The notes: generated from the letters alone by a model not told the origin. A stretch of 62,911 bases of DNA, filler included, from Basidioascus undulatus (GCA_000826855.1; 5 parts of 5 records of this genome joined end to end with filler, not necessarily neighbours in it); one strand, 5' to 3'; shown: positions 810 to 50,432, counted from the first letter of the whole stretch. Translations and numbers: made by a program.

Positions 810-2367
810 ATGCCCGAGCACGCCTGCGTACTCTCAGACCTCAGCAGGTTCCTGAGAGATTTTCTCTTCTGTAAAACAACAAAATCATGCACGGGAACCT
901 TTGGAGCGACATATGGTGAGACATCTGGAAGCGGGAGTTTCCGAAGCTGCGTCAGGTCCTTATCCTTTCCGACGCTGCTCGCCATCTCTTGCTTACACCA
1001 CCACCACAACAACCATGATCAAGTCAGCCAACCTCGTTCCTGACGTTTTGGTCGGCATCTTATCCTTCGCAACCACCGCCCGGCGCTGACAGGAAGGACA
1101 CAAACCGACCGACGAGGGGCTGTTCCCACAAGTCCGCACGGCCAACCAGACAAAGTCTTTACTCCTTCTCGTGTGCAAGGAGTAGAATGTACACTCATTA
1201 TCATCCTGGAGGGAAATTCTGCCCTTTCTGAGGCTGGTAGCACTATGATTGACTTCGGGTTTCCCTGTGATGCCCAGCCACTCGCCGCCCCCCTCCTCCA
1301 CCGGCACATCATGTTCCTCTCCTGGAAACAGCTCGAGCTCATCCTAATCCATATCGGCAATGGCCATTTGACCAGCCTTCGCCGTGCACGACACATTCGA
1401 TCGCTCGCCACCCAATTCATATGGATGGACGGGTCCGTCCACAACGCGTCGCACGAGGACTCAGGCTGGGCGAACCTCTGCCTGCCCCTAAGTCTCTGTC
1501 GAAAACTCAAGTTCCTAGACCTGTACCGAGAGAAATTCTGGGCCTCGGCGCTCGGGTTCCCGGCGTTCTCGCAACTGGCTTGCGGTGCAGATTCGACCCT
1601 CGCCACGCTCATGGGCCTGTACGCCTCGCTCGGGCCGAACTTGCTCTTTCTGCTGCTTGCCGGGTTTGAAAATCTGCTGAAGCTCCAGCTGGAGTTGGAT
1701 TGGGTGGACCTCGAGCTTGGCTAGGAGAAACTGAAAAGCAGTTTGCGCCTCTCGAAGCTTGCGGAAATGGATGTCAAGGTAGAAGGGCACGCCGACCCCT
1801 TCCTCCGCATGCTCATCCACTCCCGCCTCCCCGCGCTCAAAAAGCTTTGGCTCTACCATACCGAATTCAGCACTTCACTCGACGAAGTCCTCTAAGCACT
1901 TGGGTCTCGTCTGACCATCTATCGTTCGACCCCCGCACGAACACGCGTCCGCAGCTCATGAGGTCCTCCGCCACCTCCCGCTCACTTGCCCGAACCTCCG
2001 CCACTTTCTGACCCCCCACCTCTTTTTTTCTACAAGGAAGGACTGGCTCGATTTAGATGCGGCTCATCCCGCCGTCGCGGCGCTTTCTCCTCCCGCTGAG
2101 TATCACCCTGTCGACACCGACATTCCTGGCGTCTTCGACCGCGACGGCGCGGTGGGACCGGATCCTGACTTCGCTCTGCGCGCGCGATCGTTTGCCGCGG
2201 GTGCAACCGGTTGTTCTATCGACTTATTATTTGGAAGAACTACCGGAATTGGAGCCGCCCACCGGGAGTGGTTGAGCGCGAAGGACAGGGAGCTCAGGGA
2301 GGTGGGGATCGTGCTGCGTGTCGAAGATGGAGGGCGCGTGGTGGACTTGTTGATGGATACTCGGTGA
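810..2367 (+). CDS. Hypothetical F-box/LRR-like protein, fragmented (introns and/or frameshifts)
   Basis: Leu-rich LxxLxL-type segments in several frames (LLKLQLELDWVDL, LPRLKKLWLY) ending in ...IVLRVEDGGRVVDLLMDTR*. No continuous model could be built and the start is uncertain. Confidence 0.35.
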
Positions 2368-2699
2368 CCTAGGAGCATCCCGTTCCCAATCCTTTGTTTG
2401 TGTAATCCCTCCGAGCAAACATACCTGCCTGTAATGCCCAGTTCGCCTGCAGCCCACAATCTGGTACAGCGTTGCGGTTGACAGACTGATCCTCTTGTGA
2501 AACTTCGATGATACGTCGCGGACAGCGAGGCCCTCTATGGATTCACAGAATGATAAGCTTCGGACTCTCTTAAAGCAAGCGATGGGACATGTATGCAACC
2601 AGAGGTTTCAATTTGATGAGGCTGAAACTTCAAGTGCAGTCCGAGTTTTGCTGACAACGACACAGAGCAAGGTTAATTGCATGCCAACCCGGTTTATGT

Positions 2700-3679
2700 T
2701 CAGCTCGCAGGTACAATCTGCCCATAGCAGTCCTTCAAGAGCCGGCCCCTTGCAGCCAGTAGCTCAGCCCACTTCAGCAGCGCGGCGTTCTTCGCCCGAA
2801 GCGCCTGCCATTCCGCCTCCTCCTCGGCAGACCGGACCTTAAGGCTGAGGTTCTCGCGGCCTTTGAAAAGCTCGACATGGCCTTGGATGTGGACCGCGCG
2901 GAAAGACGGCAGCACAGCTGGATAGAGTCCAAGGACCCATGAGGCTGGAAGAAGCATGTGTCCCGCGTCCGTCTGATAGTCCTCGTGAAGCATGTAGAAC
3001 CGCAAGCTCTGCAGAGTTGGATGCGCAAGCTCATCGAGCTCCTGATCTTGCAAGCTCGTCAGCCAGAGGTGCTGCAGGCAGGGCAGGGAAGAGTTGAGCG
3101 TCCCCATCAAGTCGAGCGGGTGTTGGCCGCGAAATATGTCGACAGACTCCAGCTGTGCCCCGTAAGAGCAACCATCTCTTCCAGGAACTCCTCCGAGGGA
3201 CCGGGAAGCGCAAGGCGAAGCACGTTGAGCCCGGGAAGTCCTAGCTGCGTCAGGCACGCTCTGAGCTCCGGGAAGAAGGTGGTCGAGCGGTAGTCGTCGT
3301 AGTCTTCATACCCGGCGGTGATACTGAGATTCTGCAGATGAGGAAGCGTACCAGCCTCAATCTTGAGCCCGTCCTCGTATGAGTCCTTCTCAGCATCGAT
3401 GCCGAAAGACAGCGTAAGACTTTCGAGCAATTGGAACGGTGCGAGCTCTGCGAAGATTTGGACAGGCGGAAAATCTGGGGCGATGGAGAACTCGCGCAAA
3501 TGGGGCCCCGTCACAGAGCTAGCACTGGAACCGACAACCTGAGGAGTTGTGCCGGGGGAGGTCGAGACCTGAAAAACGCGAAACCCGATTAAAAATGCCT
3601 CGGATGAGAGCGTGTGCTCTATCGCTACTGCGGTACGATATGCAGCGAATATTTGTAGACAAAATGTTGAAACTTTCAT
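2700..3679 (-). CDS. Hypothetical F-box/LRR-like protein with one apparent frameshift
   Basis: Two overlapping ORFs (3107-3679, 2700-3257) with LRR-like motifs (LPHLQNLSI, LPCLQHLWL, LQSLRF). They join if one T is restored near 3164 (GCT CTT [T]AC GGG GCA CAG). Confidence 0.5.
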
Positions 3680-4064
3680 GGCTTTGGAGGAACGTCTGGG
3701 CCTACTGTCCCTGTTATTTTAGAATTTAGATACTTCTTCCAAAGTAAACCGAAGCGCATACAACCGAGTACTCACACGTGCAGGAAGCCCAAGTTACACC
3801 GTGACTTCGGATGTCGCCAGGCCTCGCTCTGGCCGATCGTGAAGACCTGCTTCAAAAGTCTAAGAATGACTACTACCAAAATCTTCTGAATGTACATAAA
3901 CACACCACAGGGAGGCAGATTTTGAAGCTCGAGGGTGAGCATGCTCCCAAAGACGGAACTTGAAGACATGTCGCTGTCTCGGAGCGCTTGCACTCCAACC
4001 GCCACCTTCTCCCTCGTCCTCTAGACCCTCGACGCGCGCCCTCAACATACACTCCTCAGTGACC

Positions 4065-5284
4065 ATGTTCTCTCTCCAATCAGTTCCTGAGGATATCTGG
4101 AGGCACATCTTCAGCTTCGCCACGGCTGACGACGAGCAGTACAATGACCCGAGCGTCGCGATGGCCACCAAGCTGGCTCTCGTCCAGGTCTCTAAGCAAT
4201 TCAATGTACGCAGGTATCTTCAAACTGTGCCATATACGTGCCCCCTAGTTGCTGGACAAGCTCATCCGTGCCCGCTTTCCAGGCACTCGCTCTGCCGCAT
4301 CTCTGGCGTCTCGTTTGGGTCACATCTTTCGAGCATGCGGCTTCCATCGCCGAGCGGTTCTTTTACCTTTCGAACGACTCGCTCTTTCTGCTCATGACTT
4401 GCTCTTTCTGTCGATTTTTCTGCTCACCGAAGATATTCGTGTGGCGCTCCCATCACTCATTGAGGAAGAACCGGAGACCGACTCTTCTCGTCCTCCTCGA
4501 CCACACCGTCTTGCCTGAGCCTAATCACGCTGGCAACCTCAGACGCTTCGCTGTGCTTGCTGCTGGGACATGTGGGGTATCTGAACATGCAGAAGTGGGC
4601 TATGGGACGCTTCTCGCTCTCAAGCACTGGTGTCATGTATCGCTCCGCGAGGCCCGCGCAGACTTCACCCACAAATCTGTGTTCCGGGCGGTCGCGGACT
4701 TCCCCTCCATGACCACATTTGAGGCGGGTTACAACCCTACGGGACCTGCACTCATGACCCTTATCCCAGAAATCACTTCCGCTTCGCTGGCTATGCTCGC
4801 ACTCGATGCCGCGGACACTGCCGTCGAGGCACTCTTCGATCAACTCTCGCTTGCCAGCTTTCCTCGACTCGCACACTTGACGCTCTGGCTGCTGGAGGAC
4901 ACTAATGAAGTCGAGACCGAAGCTATTTCCACATTTCTCCCTATTCAAACCCTCATATTGCACGATGCCACACCGCATCCTCAAGCTATCGCTGCATCTC
5001 GCTCCGTGCCTCTCCAGCGCATCGCGCTCGACCTGACGCAAGCTTCAAGGCGCGAAGTTCACCAGTTCCTAGAATCCCTGATATCGACGACCGGGCGCAT
5101 CACCGAAACGATTGAACTCTACATCCGAAAAGGCAAGCCATTGTCATGGCGCTGTCCCGGACATGGAGAACTCTTCGGGCTCTTTTTCCGGCTCGCGTTG
5201 CGGCTTGCCGAAAGTGTGAGTTGTCGAAGTTGTAGCAGTTGTACCCCACCAGCAACGCAGGCATGTGCCTCTCCATGTCGGTAA
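4065..5284 (+). CDS. F-box-like/LRR protein (exons ~4065-4205, 4283-5284)
   Basis: N-terminal F-box-like SVPEDIWRHIFSF...LVQVSKQFN|ALALPHLWR. GT..AG intron 4206-4282 restores the frame. Downstream LRR-like FPRLAHLTLW. Confidence 0.6.
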
Positions 5285-5883
5285 TGAACAGTTATTGATT
5301 AACAGGCTTTACGCCTTGCGGGAAATTCAGTGTGCTGCACGTTGTGTTGAGGTGACAGCACGGCACGCGTCAGGAAGACAGCAGCCGCGGAATCTTCTAA
5401 CTGGGTAGATCGGTACATAATAAGGAGCGTCCGAGGCGGGGCAGGTTAAAAGAAGAACACCATCAGAAGATCCGGGAAGGTAGCTCAATAACGCCCACGA
5501 ATGGACGAGTGGGTGCGACTGGCACACACTGCCTCACCGAACTCAGGCTGGTGAGCCGTCCGTCCCGAACAACGACCATGCCAAGCGTCGAAGTCTACGA
5601 TCATCGGTCGCCAATTGCCCTCTCTTGGTTAGCTCGGATCAAAAGCACAACCGCGTATGGAAGCAGGAGTACATATAATTCAGTCATACCGACGGCGACG
5701 CGGTATCGGTGGAGGTCGCCGTGCAGCATGTTGTCGTCATGTTTGGAGTCCCGATCTCGACTTTTCCCCCCTTTCATCTTGCATTCCCCTCTGTCCATCT
5801 GACTTCCAACCCGATCACTGCTTCCATACTTCCAAAACACCTCCCCAGCAAACAACATCGACCACCTCACCCAGACAAACACC

Positions 5884-8096
5884 ATGGCCGACGTCGTTTC
5901 GCAGTCGATCACCTTCACTCGCAGCGGGAAGACCGCGCCGAACCGCTTCCTCAAGGTCAAGCAGCGTTCAAAAAAAGTGACAAGTCTGATGCTGAGAATT
6001 CTGATCGGTTTTCAAACAGAGCGCCATGACTGAGCGTCTCTGCACCTGGGACGACCACAACCCGGACGAGTGCGGGAAGCCAACTTCTGAGGTACGTGAC
6101 ATTCCAACGGTCGAGCCTATTTACCGCTGATGGCACTAATCACGAAATGTTGTAGTACCTGTACCTCTATGAGCAGTGGGGGAAGGGCGAGATTGGCACG
6201 GTCGTGCTAGGCAACATTCCGTGTAAGTATCGATCAGCGATGTCGCCTACGCAGTACGCGTGCTCAATCATCTACGGATCTAAACAGGCGACCGCGTGAG
6301 ATAACATCCCTTCAGTTGAATATTCTAAACTAAACTAATTTTGTCTCCCCCCAGCGCTACCCCGAAGCGAAGTGCAACGCGGTGATGGACCCCACGACCC
6401 CGTGGGACGCCGTCAAGGCGTTCAAGCCTGTGGTCGCAGCCGTCAAGGCTCACGGCAGTCTCTGCATCGGCCAAAGTACGCATCTCCATTTTGGTTCCTT
6501 CCAATCAAGATCCCAGTTCGAAACTGACATGCTGGTGCTCTTCCACTTCCGCAGTCACCCACGCCGGCCGCCAGACGAGCGAGGACATCGCACCCACGCC
6601 TGTGTCCGCTTCGGACGTGCAGAGCGCCCCGCTCGGCGGGATGACCTTCGGCAAGCCGCGCCCGCTTACTATGGAGGAGATCGAGGACATCGTGAAGCGC
6701 TTTGCGTTTGCTGCTAAGACGCTGCACGCTGTCAGTCTGAGCTGTTCTCATCCTTTTGTTTCTTTCCTTTCTTTTCCGTTTTCTATTGAACGTACTCGCT
6801 GACTTTAGGTGAACGTGACAGGCCGGCGCGGATGGCGCTCAGCTGCACTCGGCGGTGAGTTCAAATTGGCTCATGGTTTGACTGTACGGTTGACTTACTC
6901 TGTTTGGACGAAATCAGCACGGGTACCTTCTCTCGCAGTTCCTTTCTCCGAGAGTTAACCTGAGGAACGACCGCTACGGCGGGTAAGCGGCTCTTACTGT
7001 GATCGGGACCAAGTGGTATACTGACCGAGTCCACGCAGCTCGTTCGACAACCGCTCACGTATCGTGTTCGAGATCATCGATACCATCAAGAAGGAGGTCA
7101 ACGACGACAGCTGTACGCCATGCCCCGCATGCTCACACCCAGATTTAGCACTAACGCTTGGACTTCGCAGTCATCCTCAGCATCAAGATCAACAGGTACG
7201 ATCATACTAAAACCTTTTGAAGCGGCCATGAAGCTGATAGTTCTTCTTTTCTGCACGCAGCGCGGACTTCTCGGAGGGCGGCTTCGACGAGGAGGAGTCT
7301 CGTGAGATGATCAAACGCCTTGAGGCTGCTGGCGTGGACCTCATTGAGCTCAGCGGCGGAACGTGAGTTGTTAATTCGTCTCCCTCCTCTGAAGGTTAAG
7401 ACTGATCCGTAATCTGTTGGTGATCACAGCTACGAGAGCATGGCGTTCGCGCACAAGAAGGAGAGCACCAAGCGGCGCGAGGCGTTCTTCATCGAGTGCG
7501 TCTATTTCAATCTCCTCGCGCTGTCTCAAGGTGACTGACGGCAATTTCCTCCACTCTCAGATTCGCCGACCGCATTCGCCCGCACCTCAAGTCGTCCAAG
7601 CTGGCCGTCACGGGCGGCTTCCGCTCGGTCGATGCGTCAGTCACAACCATCCCTGCTCTGCCTCTGCTGTTCCTGCGCTATGCTGACGCGAAGGTGGTAA
7701 ATTTGGAACAGCATGGCCAAGGCCATCAACGAGAAGAGCTGCGACATCGTCGGCCTTGCCCGCCCGCTCACGGCCGAGCTGTACCTGCCGAACGAGCTCA
7801 TGTCCGGCAAGACGAAGGCGGCCAAGGAGAACCTGGTCGACCAGTCTGTCCAGACTGCGTCGTCTTACTACCAGCTCGGAGAGGTGCGTATTCTTACCTT
7901 GCTATTGTTGCGGTTTGCTGCCTTGAAGCTCATGCGTGTTGAAATTGGATGAAAATAGGTCGGCGCTGGAAGGCAGCCCCCTGACCTTTCGAACGGGAAG
8001 ATCGCCAAGGCCGTCGAGAAGGCTATCATGGACAACTCGGCGGCAGCGTTCAAGTTCAGGCCGCACGTCTCCGCCTACCACAGCCAGGACCAGTAG
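5884..8096 (+). CDS. NADH:flavin oxidoreductase / Old Yellow Enzyme family, ~15 exons
   Basis: Spliced translation gives APNRFLK|SAMTE, QITHAGRQT, AGADGAQLHSA|HGYLLSQFLSPRVNLRNDRYGG|SFDNRSR, VDLIELSGGT|YE, AVTGGFRS and IVGLARP, all typical OYE/NADH oxidase motifs. Stop TAG at 8094-8096. Confidence 0.92.
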
Positions 8097-8880
8097 ACTG
8101 AGGTCGTGAGGCCGTGTGATTTCCCTATTGACAATTGAAATCGAATACGTGAATGCTGCGCAGCTCTCCCGCTTGACTCATGAACACGGCAAATGCTTGC
8201 AGGTACTTGGCGGGTTTCTTTCCTCAGAAAATGTCGAAAATCAGTGTCAGAGCTCGCTGTCGAGTGAGGACGACGTACGGGGGATGGAGAAAGCGGAAAC
8301 TAGCGTCGGCGCTGCTTGGATAACAGGCCCTTTTTGTTCAGATACCTGCAAGTGAATCAAATTGCACACTGCATGGGCATCATGAAATTGACGGACAAGC
8401 CCGCAACGGGCATCAGCAGTGAAGTTCGCGTTGCGGAAAGTCCCTAACAGTTCTGCTGAAAAACTTACGGCGAGCCCGGACATTCACACATGTTTCGTAT
8501 CATGATGCGGCAATGCTGCGCATCAAGAACCAAACGAGTGCCCCTACCGCGACGAACAGCAAATATTGCTCCGGGCCTTAGTGCTGCTCATTTCCGTCCA
8601 TCACCGCGCGGCTCGCTCCACGCGCCAACGATGACGGTATCGGTCATCCTTCGCAATCGACTCATTGCCGACTAGCAGACTTGACGCCAACATAGCCCTC
8701 CAATCAGATAAGCTACCACCCAGCGCGTGCACGTGGCGGTAACGCGCGTGACTCCAACATAGATCGGCGAAGATGTAAATTGTCGATATCGACTGCAGCA
8801 GGTGTGCGAGAGCAAGCAGAAAGTGCGTGGCGTGTGTAGCAAAGATGCGAAGCGAAATATGGAAACGAACGCGAGGCGAA

Positions 8881-8940
8881 GCGAAAGCAAGACCGGCGAA
8901 AGCAAGACCGGGAAAGCAAGACGGGCGAAAGCAAAGATGG
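8881..8940. repeat. Minisatellite, ~15-bp unit GCGAAAGCAAGACCG x4 (degenerate)
   Basis: Two exact and two degenerate tandem copies, in the presumed 3' UTR of the kinase gene. Confidence 0.75.
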
Positions 8941-9063
8941 GTCAAGGGGCAACGTTCGAGCTGCAGGGGCTAAGTATGTGATGCGGGTCTGCATGCGGGG
9001 GGGGATGAGGTGTAAAGATGGAGGACAGATGCGGTGCACCTTCAGGGGAGGCACAGCACTCCC

Positions 9064-11447
<2,384 letters not shown>

Positions 11448-12386
11448 GCTGGAGGTCGTCGTGCTGAACGAGAAGCAAGCACGGACCGCGCGACCATCAG
11501 CTCCGGTTGCACTGCGCATGCCCATGATATCCCACTGCTATAGACTCAACTGGTTGTATTTAGCAGAGAATCGTTACCAAGTCGTATAATTTGCTGCGGA
11601 GTCGTAGAGGCGGAGGCGTGGATCGTGAAGGGCGTAAGGAAAGAAGTCGCGATGAGGCACGCGGATCCACGCCAGAGCGAGCGAGCGAGAGCGTCCAGCG
11701 TGCGCTCAAAGGTGTCTCAGAGCGCAGCCGGCGCCTGAAAGCAGCTTCGCGTTTCAGGACGCAGTGGCCATTTTCTGCGTCTGTCTTCACCAACTACAGA
11801 GACCTACGATCAACATCCAGTCTTTTCTAGTACTCTGGCTTGTCCATTAGTGCATAAATCGTACTGGTACCCGGGTCGGCGGTTGTCCAGACCGCCACGT
11901 CAAGGCTTACCGCTGTCAAGTGGTGCAAGACCTACATGCATTGCTCTACCTCAAAGTGTTGAACAGGGCCATGGAATGTAACGTGAAGCTCTGGACGCTC
12001 CTAAGTTTTGAGAAGGTCAAGGGTCGATGCCGCTTTCCGCAGGCCCAGTAGGCAGTAAAGCATCGCCTGCACGGGCTACAGATGATGCGTGTATAGAGAT
12101 AAGCCAAGTTATTTTCAAAAAGACCAAATTACTTTGACGACAATTGACAGAGCAAATGAAGACAGGCCGTAACGCAATCTACCATTTAGCTGGTGGGTCA
12201 GGCTCTGGCATCGCAGCATCCCCGACTGCTTGGAGCTAACGACTCTGGCGAGAGCAACACTGAACGTGCCTCTTTCTAGTGTATCAAAAAGAGATGAAAG
12301 AAACTGTGCGTGCTGTTGCTTCCCACCTGTCTAGGCTGGAAGTCCAGCTCGCTGACAACACGTCTTCTCGTACTCTTGTGTGTTGC

Positions 12387-12441
12387 TATATGTATTAGCT
12401 AACTTTCAATACTTATCACCACGAGCGTAAGCCAGTGGTAA
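12387..12441 (+). promoter_or_regulatory. Candidate Pol III upstream elements: TATA-like TATATGTATTA (12387-12397) and A-box-like TAAGCCAGTGG (12428-12438)
   Basis: The D-loop-like AGTGGTA lies 5' of the B-box GGTTCGATCC (12462-12471) of the permuted tRNA. The TATA-like tract is ~30-40 bp further upstream. Confidence 0.45.
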
Positions 12442-12447
12442 GTCGAG

Positions 12448-12520
12448 ATCAGGGGGTTGCAGGTTCGATCCCTGCGTCGGTCAAGGCCGGCTGGCTCAAT
12501 GGTAGAGTATCTGACTACGA
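12448..12520 (+). tRNA. Circularly permuted tRNA-Arg(ACG): 3' half 12448-12483, 1-nt spacer, 5' half 12485-12520
   Basis: Rejoined 72-nt sequence GGCCGGCTGGCTCAATGGTAGAGTATCTGACTACGA+ATCAGGGGGTTGCAGGTTCGATCCCTGCGTCGGTCA folds into a full cloverleaf. Acceptor GGCCGGC/GTCGGTC, D stem GCTC/GAGT, anticodon stem TCTGA/TCAGG with loop CTACGAA, T stem GCAGG/CCTGC with loop TTCGATC. U8, A14, G18G19, A21, U33 and the A15-U48 pair are all canonical. Confidence 0.88.
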
Positions 12521-12521
12521 C

Positions 12522-12526
12522 TTTTT
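12522..12526 (+). terminator. Pol III oligo-T terminator (T5)
   Basis: TTTTT begins one base after position 37 of the tRNA 5' half. Confidence 0.65.
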
Positions 12527-12627
12527 GNNNNNNNNNNNNNNNNNNNNNNNNNNNNNNNNNNNNNNNNNNNNTTAATTAATTAANNNNNNNNNNNNNNNNN
12601 NNNNNNNNNNNNNNNNNNNNNNNNNNN

Positions 12628-25010: not shown

Positions 25011-25240
25011 CCGTGGGGGAGTCGTGCGTGTCTGGATGGGATAGAGTGGGGCGGTGGGGCGTCGGGTCAGTGGGTTGTTCGCGTACGGTTGGGGAGATTG
25101 GGGGCGGGGATGCGACAGGGAAAGGGGTGGGAGGACAGTTNNNNNNNNNNNNNNNNNNNNNNNNNNNNNNNNNNNNNNNNNNNNTTAATTAATTAANNNN
25201 NNNNNNNNNNNNNNNNNNNNNNNNNNNNNNNNNNNNNNNN

Positions 25241-37000: not shown

Positions 37001-37931
37001 GATTGGCTTCGAGCACCGACTCCTGAGGGGGCAGGGAGAAGGATCAGCGTGTCGATTCAATTGTCAGTGGTATCGCGAGCTTGATCGACATGGCCGATTG
37101 ATCCCGCTGAGACGCAGAACGCGTGTATTGGTGGGTTTGAAAGGATTGGTAGTGAAATGCAGTCGTTCCCGAGACTCGAGAACCTAGTGAACTTCGATCT
37201 TCGCGCAGAGGGCCGTCGCCTGGGCTTCTTCGGAAGTTCGACTCACTGAGGCGCGGTCAAAGCGTGAGATTCTGACAGCGCGAGCGCTGTACGGACTTCG
37301 ATGACAAATAATGTAGCGAAGTAATTCCGTGAAAGAGCAAGTCGATCGAGGTGAGGAGCGAGAACAGGGGTGAGTGCAGGAAGACAAGGAAGGTGAGCTG
37401 ATCTTCTGGAAGACGCCTCCTCAGTGATGTCACCATCCTCGTTCCCCTGCGACCACTGAGCTGAAACAGCAAGGGGTTTTGCACGCACGCATCTGTCGAA
37501 TGTCTATACGAGCCAGAGCACAAGCGAAGGATCGAAGGGAACGAGGAGTCGCGCCTTGCTCAGATCCGAATGTCATCCAAGAGCCTGCACACGGCATACA
37601 ATCGTGGAAGAGCGCCCATTCCTCCCGTCCTATTCACGTGCATGTATTGTAACCCCCTCCCACCTGGCGCTCATTAAAGATAATGCGTGGAGCTTTGCTC
37701 CCATCATCGCATGGCGTGCAAAAAAAAAAAAAAAAAAANNNNNNNNNNNNNNNNNNNNNNNNNNNNNNNNNNNNNNNNNNNNTTAATTAATTAANNNNNN
37801 NNNNNNNNNNNNNNNNNNNNNNNNNNNNNNNNNNNNNNCCCCTCCCCCCCCCCTTCCTGCCTTTTACCCCCCTCCCCCTCATCCAGCCGCCACTGTGTCT
37901 GTTGCTGATGATATTGTTCCCTGCGACGAAG

Positions 37932-50332: not shown

Positions 50333-50432
50333 NNNNNNNNNNNNNNNNNNNNNNNNNNNNNNNNNNNNNNNNNNNNTTAATTAATTAANNNNNNNNNNNN
50401 NNNNNNNNNNNNNNNNNNNNNNNNNNNNNNNN

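Follow-up and report, generated by a model that had tools for sequence, protein, structure and literature searches.

A multi-copy, circularly permuted tRNA-Arg(ACG) element in a basidiomycete fungus and its possible role as a working tRNA gene family

Permuted tRNA genes have been described in Cyanidioschyzon merolae, in prasinophyte green algae, in the nucleomorph of Bigelowiella natans and in the archaeon Thermofilum pendens. In the portions of the reviews available to us, they figure as an oddity of some algae and a single archaeon and are tied to promoter-independent transcription and to splicing of the bulge-helix-bulge (BHB) type (PMC3978253, PMC4033280, PMC13578239). Type II genes, in which the break lies at 37/38, are reported as permuted nuclear tRNA genes in Ostreococcus, Micromonas, C. 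merolae and the B. natans nucleomorph (Soma et al. 2007; Maruyama et al. 2010; reviewed in PMC3978253). According to the available text of that review, the intervening sequence of eukaryotic permuted genes measures 5-74 bp, and a length of 1 bp occurs only in T. pendens, where CCA is encoded; how the acceptor loop of this 1-nt case is opened was described in 2014 as an open problem (PMC3978253). The T. pendens genes are those for tRNA-Tyr(GTA) and tRNA-iMet (Chan, Cozen and Lowe 2011, PMC3218864; cited in PMC3978253). The same review places TATA-like boxes within ~50 bp of algal permuted tRNA genes and presents a tandem-duplication-and-loss model for the origin of permuted genes (PMC3978253). 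A full-text search of the open-access literature, to the extent of the text it covers, retrieved no fungal or basidiomycete permuted tRNA, in agreement with the original prediction for the present locus, which knew of no fungal example.

The DNA analysed here (the window, 62,911 nt) consists of five contigs of 12,527, 12,513, 12,498, 12,494 and 12,479 nt, between which linkers of the form N44-TTAATTAATTAA-N44 occupy 12528-12627, 25141-25240, 37739-37838 and 50333-50432. Their stepwise decrease in length suggests complete contigs taken in size order from a fragmented assembly. As the contigs are separate, reasoning from gene neighbourhood is invalid across the four linker points. The permuted tRNA-Arg is carried by the 12,527-nt contig, whose true end is position 12527; the gap that was thought to follow this position, possibly hiding a 3′ half, is an artificial inter-contig linker, and nothing is hidden there. 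A run of 19 G opens the first contig (1-19) and a run of 19 A closes the third (37720-37738); both are probably sequencing or assembly end artefacts, not biology.

The G+C content of the window is 0.577. Its reading frames are broken and short, and exon-like Pfam matches were obtained to a TPR protein, an ABC transporter membrane domain, mitochondrial ribosomal protein S2 and a steroid dehydrogenase. Judged from its sequence, the DNA is eukaryotic. The S2 frame, which lies on a different contig of the same window from the tRNA element, has 71 protein relatives at E ≤ 1e-10. Because the named relatives that match best belong to Wallemia (W. ichthyophaga and W. mellicola, 57% identity) and a large number of Agaricomycetes come next (41-50%), the host is identified as a basidiomycete distantly related to Wallemia, which upholds the fungal origin proposed earlier. 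On the first contig (1-12527), 97 stop-to-stop frames of at least 70 aa were collected, and the first 73 by coordinate together with 21 overlapping frames were scanned against Pfam. The sole match among these 94 frames was a protein-kinase domain exon at 9585-9827 on the minus strand, on the same contig as the tRNA-Arg element. A 348-aa ORF at 4238-5284 had no relatives at E ≤ 1e-5.

The predicted arrangement at 12448-12520, with the tRNA's 3′ half placed before the 5′ half, was recovered with every coordinate correct (Table 1). The 3′ half comprises the 3′ strand of the anticodon stem, a 5-nt variable loop, the T arm (GCAGG/TTCGATC/CCTGC), the 3′ strand of the acceptor stem and a discriminator A (12483). 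The anticodon ACG is found at 12517-12519, within the 5′ half. Positions 12521-12527 read CTTTTTG, after which the contig ends. The single intervening base and A73 would together form a 2-nt 'acceptor loop'.

Table 1. Coordinates of the permuted tRNA-Arg(ACG) element and of its upstream features, counted from the first letter of the window.
Feature	Coordinates	Strand	Basis or remark
TATA-like stretch TATATGTATTA	12387..12397	+	51-61 nt upstream of the 3′ half; sequence, motif scan
Putative degenerate remnant of a tRNA 5′ part	12421..12444	+	read as decayed acceptor strand and D arm
Leader AAGTCGAG	12440..12447	+	common to copies; pairs with anticodon loop and trailer
3′ half of tRNA-Arg(ACG), positions 38-73	12448..12483	+	sequence, ARAGORN after rejoining
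Single intervening base, A	12484	+	T in the soil metagenome copy X4
5′ half of tRNA-Arg(ACG), positions 1-37, 3′ end CTACGA	12485..12520	+	sequence, ARAGORN after rejoining
Trailer C and T5 (12522-12526), Pol III terminator-like	12521..12526	+	copies diverge right after

When 12485-12520 and 12448-12483 were rejoined in that order, ARAGORN called a tRNA-Arg(acg) of 72 nt, the canonical molecule that had been proposed. The stems agree with the prediction as well, with 7 of 7 pairs in the acceptor stem (two of them G-U) and 5 of 5 in the anticodon stem (one G-U). The rejoined tRNA also has a D stem of 4 bp, a T stem of 5 bp, the 7-nt loop CUACGAA and the 5-nt variable loop, and we take T8, A14, G18, G19, A21, U33, G53, T54, T55, C56, A58 and C61 to be in place. 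The break falls exactly at 37/38, the canonical intron site. As anticipated, the gene is missed by standard scans: ARAGORN made no call in the window or in the native stretch, and Rfam in gathering mode gave zero matches across the whole window.

As a chance control, segments of 36+1+36 nt were rejoined at all 124,300 positions of both strands and passed to ARAGORN. All 12 tRNA calls came from this locus (six offsets on two strands). None of the other 124,288 rejoined positions was called as a tRNA, and the layout is therefore far beyond chance. Further copies were not found within the window, where a 41-nt junction pattern allowing up to three mismatches matched itself alone and GGTTCGATCC allowing up to one mismatch had a single match. 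Two candidates were rejected: a minus-strand match of 15-16 nt at ~59093 sits in unrelated sequence, and a D-arm-like motif close to where the first contig begins (31-52) is no more similar to the leader than chance would give, being equalled in 57 of 500 shuffles.

Logan contigs from four sequencing runs were aligned to 10500-12527. Two of the runs, X1 and X2, cover the whole stretch and are possibly the source data, not independent of it; the other two, X4 and X5, come from soil metagenomes sequenced in other studies. The original prediction had described a lone gene at a contig end. The element is instead multi-copy, one of roughly 20-26 dispersed copies (a rough figure). Contigs of the single-copy flank have a depth of 18.2 in X1, where they stop at 12469, and of 43.1 in X2, where they stop at 12463. 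A 56-nt contig with zero differences, covering the junction between the halves (12454-12509), has a depth of 175.4 in X1 and 472.7 in X2. A 53-nt variant with one difference (12454-12506) reaches 298.3 in X1 and does not occur among the X2 matches listed. Dividing junction by single-copy depth gives ~10 + 16 = 26 copies in X1 and 11 copies of the exact form in X2. The summed depths of 1385-9700 are not copy numbers, and the estimate was taken from single junction contigs and from counts of flanking contigs.

The number of contigs placed on the stretch was 59 in X1 and 60 in X2, nearly all of them on 12416-12527. At least 99% alike were 41 of the 59 and 39 of the 60, with unrelated flanks. Contigs overrunning the ends of the stretch number 23 in X1 and 22 in X2, and the roughly 22 that exit the element to the right are in line with the copy estimate from depth. 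Other copies turn unlike the window just before 12433-12441, and at least seven contigs in X1 and at least six in X2 diverge after 12525/12526, their mutual agreement beyond this point being only 0.47 and 0.46. The start and end limits shared by the copies therefore define the repeated unit as 12440-12526, exactly the span of the original prediction. One X2 copy leaves after 12520 into a different T-rich trailer, and diverged copies are present (6 differences in 82 nt; 4 differences in 57 nt). Near-identical copies with unrelated flanks are the pattern of a tRNA gene family.

Two further X1 copies were recorded. One is alike from 12416 onward. The other, placed on 12453-12509, spans the permuted junction, is unlike the window before 12453 and ends where the anticodon-stem strands lie; this copy may represent a permuted gene with another anticodon stem or for another isoacceptor.

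The ordinary order of a 5′ half followed by a 3′ half, with or without an intron, was found in none of the listed X1 and X2 contigs that are at least 85% alike (no joints), a comparison that would miss any conventional tRNA-Arg(ACG) gene whose sequence falls below 85% likeness. Contigs fitting two places were likewise absent among the 59 and the 60. In the soil metagenome X4, a 151-nt contig carries 12441-12523 in the same order with three differences, one of them 12484 A>T. Since the stretch is elsewhere 97-99% alike, this copy probably belongs to the same species or to one very close to it. The junction is thus spanned by high-depth contigs in X1 and X2 and independently by X4; the layout is therefore not an assembly artefact, and the misassembly considered with the prediction did not materialise. 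Patterns searched in JGI metagenome contigs, namely the T loop and D arm in permuted order and the first 24 nt of the 3′ half, each returned 0 matches.

Soil metagenome contigs also touch the single-copy flank. At 10669-12098, contigs of X4 and X5, from two further studies, match parts of the sequence at ~97-99% identity, and the same or a very close fungus is therefore present in soils.

Motifs resembling signals for RNA polymerase III (Pol III) surround the element. By analogy with the boxes near algal permuted genes, the TATA-like stretch is a candidate upstream Pol III promoter element. A relaxed A-box pattern applied to 12300-12527 matched at 12428 and 12492 only. The latter match is the true A box (TGGCTCAATGG, 12492-12502) in the 5′ half; it stands behind the B box (GGTTCGATCC, 12462-12471) in the T arm of the 3′ half, which is the wrong order for TFIIIC. 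The former is an A-box-like motif (TAAGCCAGTGG, 12428-12438) inside the putative remnant and upstream of the B box, and it could restore the A-then-B order for TFIIIC, the two boxes being 34 nt apart. Related A-box-like motifs lie upstream of other copies, one of which reads TAGCCTAGTGG, in our view a fit to the A-box consensus TRGCNNAGTGG. Read as tRNA positions, 12421-12444 resembles a decayed acceptor strand followed by a D arm, as the tandem-duplication-and-loss model predicts, and this segment may be a tRNA remnant with a promoter role. By motif alone, the upstream promoter-like elements (12387-12397 and 12428-12438) and the T5 at 12522-12526 are all present.

In the predicted fold of the window copy, a leader hairpin ACCAC...GTGGT is possible at 12418-12439 and takes in the A-box-like motif. 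A scan for bacterial promoters and terminators, a type of scan unsuited to a eukaryote, found nothing.

The original prediction also proposed that leader and trailer form a BHB-like junction. Its geometry proved exact, but the fold is energetically poor and is not the favoured one. The two bulges, A12446 and G12447 before A38 and G36 and A37 before C12521, lie beside the anticodon stem. The central helix consists of C32-G12445, U33.C12444, A34-U12443 and C35-G12442 (three of four paired), the outer helix is two A-U pairs, and the canonical bulge positions put both cuts at the correct ends. C32 thereby pairs with G12445, 3 nt before the 3′ cut. An anticodon-intron pair is used by eukaryotic splicing endonucleases, and C32-G12445 is presumably such a pair.

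The BHB register was calculated at -15.7 kcal/mol against -21.3 kcal/mol for the tRNA body alone, 5.6 kcal/mol worse than an unpaired leader and trailer. The alternative 6-bp helix between leader and trailer that had been pointed out is real in the calculation (12440-12445/12518-12523, -28.5 kcal/mol). The BHB register is 12.8 kcal/mol worse than this helix, which buries the 5′ cut site. The minimum-free-energy folds contain the 6-bp helix, with modest folding z-scores of -1.6 and -2.1. The weak BHB is a real weakness of reading the element as a working gene. It is not fatal, because the eukaryotic endonuclease measures from the mature body.

Codon usage was counted in four Pfam-supported ORFs (1893 codons). 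CGC, expected to be frequent, is the dominant arginine codon (96/162), and CGT, CGC and CGA together make up 111 of the 162 (69%). On these counts, an arginine tRNA with inosine-34 would be the main arginine decoder. Since Arg(ICG) would read 69% of the Arg codons, a high gene copy number is plausible.

We consider the best explanation to be a dispersed family of working type II (37/38) permuted tRNA-Arg(ICG) genes, whose maturation would fall to splicing endonuclease, ligase, RNase P and tRNase Z, and assign it a probability of roughly 0.55. From the sequence we infer transcription, each processing step and the role of the family as the cell's source of tRNA-Arg(ICG). Pol III would start ~30 nt upstream of the 3′ half (about 12410-12420), guided by the TATA-like box and/or by the T-arm B box acting with the A-box-like remnant upstream, and would stop at T5. 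In the folded transcript, A73 and one base would close the acceptor stem of a tRNA body, with leader and trailer in the place of an intron. The tRNA-splicing endonuclease (Sen complex), taking its position from the mature body and the C32:G(-3) pair, would cut after A37 and before A38, and the fungal tRNA ligase would link A37 to A38 to give a circle. RNase P and tRNase Z (or an exonuclease) would then open the acceptor end and take out the single linker base. After addition of CCA and deamination of A34 to inosine, the product would read CGU, CGC and CGA, ~69% of Arg codons.

The hardest step of this pathway is the opening of an acceptor stem closed by A73 and one base. A 7-bp acceptor stem with a 2-nt closure cannot form fully, and we know of no enzyme that opens a 2-nt acceptor loop. 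The near-identity of about twenty copies could equally fit a young burst of repeats. The further proposal that all of the host's tRNA-Arg(ICG), which would decode roughly two thirds of its Arg codons, comes from about twenty permuted genes is more tentative, and we would give it somewhat less than even odds.

Among the rival explanations, the one that survives best is a dead or selfish SINE-like repeat, derived from a rearranged tRNA-Arg or from a reverse-transcribed circular or dimeric pre-tRNA, with ordinary genes supplying tRNA-Arg(ACG). We regard it as unlikely. Dispersal in ~20-26 copies with sharp shared limits at 12440-12526 is consistent with such a repeat, as are the diverged copies and the weak BHB fold, but an A-rich or LINE-like tail is missing and the element finishes in a Pol III terminator. 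The unit is only ~87-110 nt long. The copies are unlike right after T5, so a shared body or tail is lacking. In the review's table, so far as available, permuted genes are single apart from one pair, and a one-base linker fits the model of reverse transcription of a circle (PMC3978253); against these points stand the identity of at least 99% among most copies in their tRNA parts and the absence of any ordinary-order copy among the aligned contigs. The position of the break, the C32:G pair and the trailer match the needs of processing, and a relic need not keep them.

A less probable reading, to which we attach little weight, is a Pol III RNA that is stable but does not decode, carries a tRNA-like head on the plan of the bacterial YrlA/Y RNAs and is neither cut nor ligated. 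The 6-bp leader-trailer helix, a 3x3 internal loop and the anticodon stem would make up its closing stem, the T arm, capped acceptor stem and D arm its head, and the U tail would bind La. The minimum-free-energy fold is exactly this closed stem. In a permissive search of 12300-12528, the sole Rfam match was YrlA (RF02553; E 3.1e-06, over 12439-12527), although its 34.6 bits are half of the gathering score (69). Of the model's long closing stem, which we take to be the Ro60-binding helix, 10 and 14 positions are deleted in the alignment, and the tRNA-like module alone matches. A YrlA match that lacks the closing stem therefore reflects the permuted order of the tRNA modules, not membership, and any permuted tRNA would score so. 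A perfect 7-nt anticodon loop (U33, ACG, A37, A38), formed only when the halves are rejoined at exactly 37/38, would be superfluous in a mimic. Some twenty copies of the gene are also unlike Y RNAs, which are not known at such numbers.

The remaining reading, an assembly artefact at the contig end or an ordinary intron-containing gene with its 3′ half in the gap, has in its favour the place of the element at the very end of a contig with N following in the window, but it retains only a minimal probability, and its artefact form is largely excluded: the N run was inserted artificially to join contigs that are separate, the 3′half-A-5′half junction is spanned by high-depth contigs of two runs and by the X4 soil contig, other copies run on past T5, mutually unlike and with no contig returning to a 3′ half, and a T5 within an intron would stop Pol III.

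If the permuted genes do supply all of the host's tRNA-Arg(ICG), an opisthokont with an ordinary splicing endonuclease and a Trl1-type ligase would routinely make circular tRNA intermediates, and the host would have to open an acceptor stem closed by two nucleotides. The upstream pseudo-A box would be kept so that TFIIIC reads an A box and then a B box. No permuted tRNA would have been known before outside algae and archaea, nor any that is multi-copy and essential. With a working fungal family, the opisthokont's standard machinery for tRNA splicing would be able to carry the permuted-tRNA pathway, permuted tRNA genes could multiply and supply a major tRNA, and fungal genome annotations may silently lack essential tRNAs. 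A culturable fungus would be at hand in which to follow the opening of a circular tRNA that has a 2-nt acceptor loop. Should the element be a dead repeat or a tRNA mimic instead, it would still be an undescribed fungal element of Pol III type, of modest importance.

The closest counterparts are the algal type II genes. As described in the available portions of the review literature, they have the junction at 37/38, a possible BHB-like motif of leader and trailer, an upstream TATA-like stretch, a downstream T-stretch and an unencoded CCA, and the fungal element resembles them in these respects, for the BHB-like motif in geometry; its upstream remnant is compatible with the tandem-duplication-and-loss model of origin. 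The host differs, being a fungus (an opisthokont) and not an alga. In the review's table, the Arg(ACG) isoacceptor is absent, algal genes occur in one or two copies as against ~20-26 in the fungal family, and the intervening sequence of the eukaryotes is 5-74 bp as against 1 bp (PMC3978253). In contrast to the algal genes, the fungal element has an A-box-like motif upstream of the B box, through which TFIIIC might act in the normal order; on the other side, the fungal BHB is weak.

The 1-nt intervening sequence is shared with tRNA-Tyr of T. pendens, the only other such case in the review's table (PMC3978253). The archaeal gene is otherwise unlike the fungal element, as far as the sources at hand describe it: the junction is at 59/60, the encoded CCA makes the acceptor loop larger and the genes are single-copy. 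The archaeal endonuclease moreover requires a strict BHB, unlike the fungal setting.

YrlA (RF02553) of bacteria and phages has, like the fungal element, the order T arm, capped acceptor-like stem and D arm, together with a closing stem formed by the ends. It is set apart by the score (34.6 against 69 bits for gathering), by the large deletion of its closing stem in the alignment and by the eukaryotic host of the fungal element. The complete anticodon loop split at 37/38, kept in the fungal element, is presumably lacking in YrlA.

AfuSINE2 of Aspergillus fumigatus, a fungal tRNA-related SINE, resembles the fungal element in being dispersed, multi-copy and tRNA-derived with Pol III promoter boxes. 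Fungal tRNA-related SINEs, so far as described, have their tRNA part in the ordinary order, followed by a body and a tail, whereas the permuted unit is just a permuted tRNA with a short leader and a terminator at its end. The A. fumigatus SINE paper, in the text available, mentions target-site duplications (PMC5063351). A working fungal tRNA-Arg family is plausible from its sequence; if real, it would lie in an unexpected kingdom and be unusual in its copy number, its 1-nt linker and its upstream pseudo-A box.
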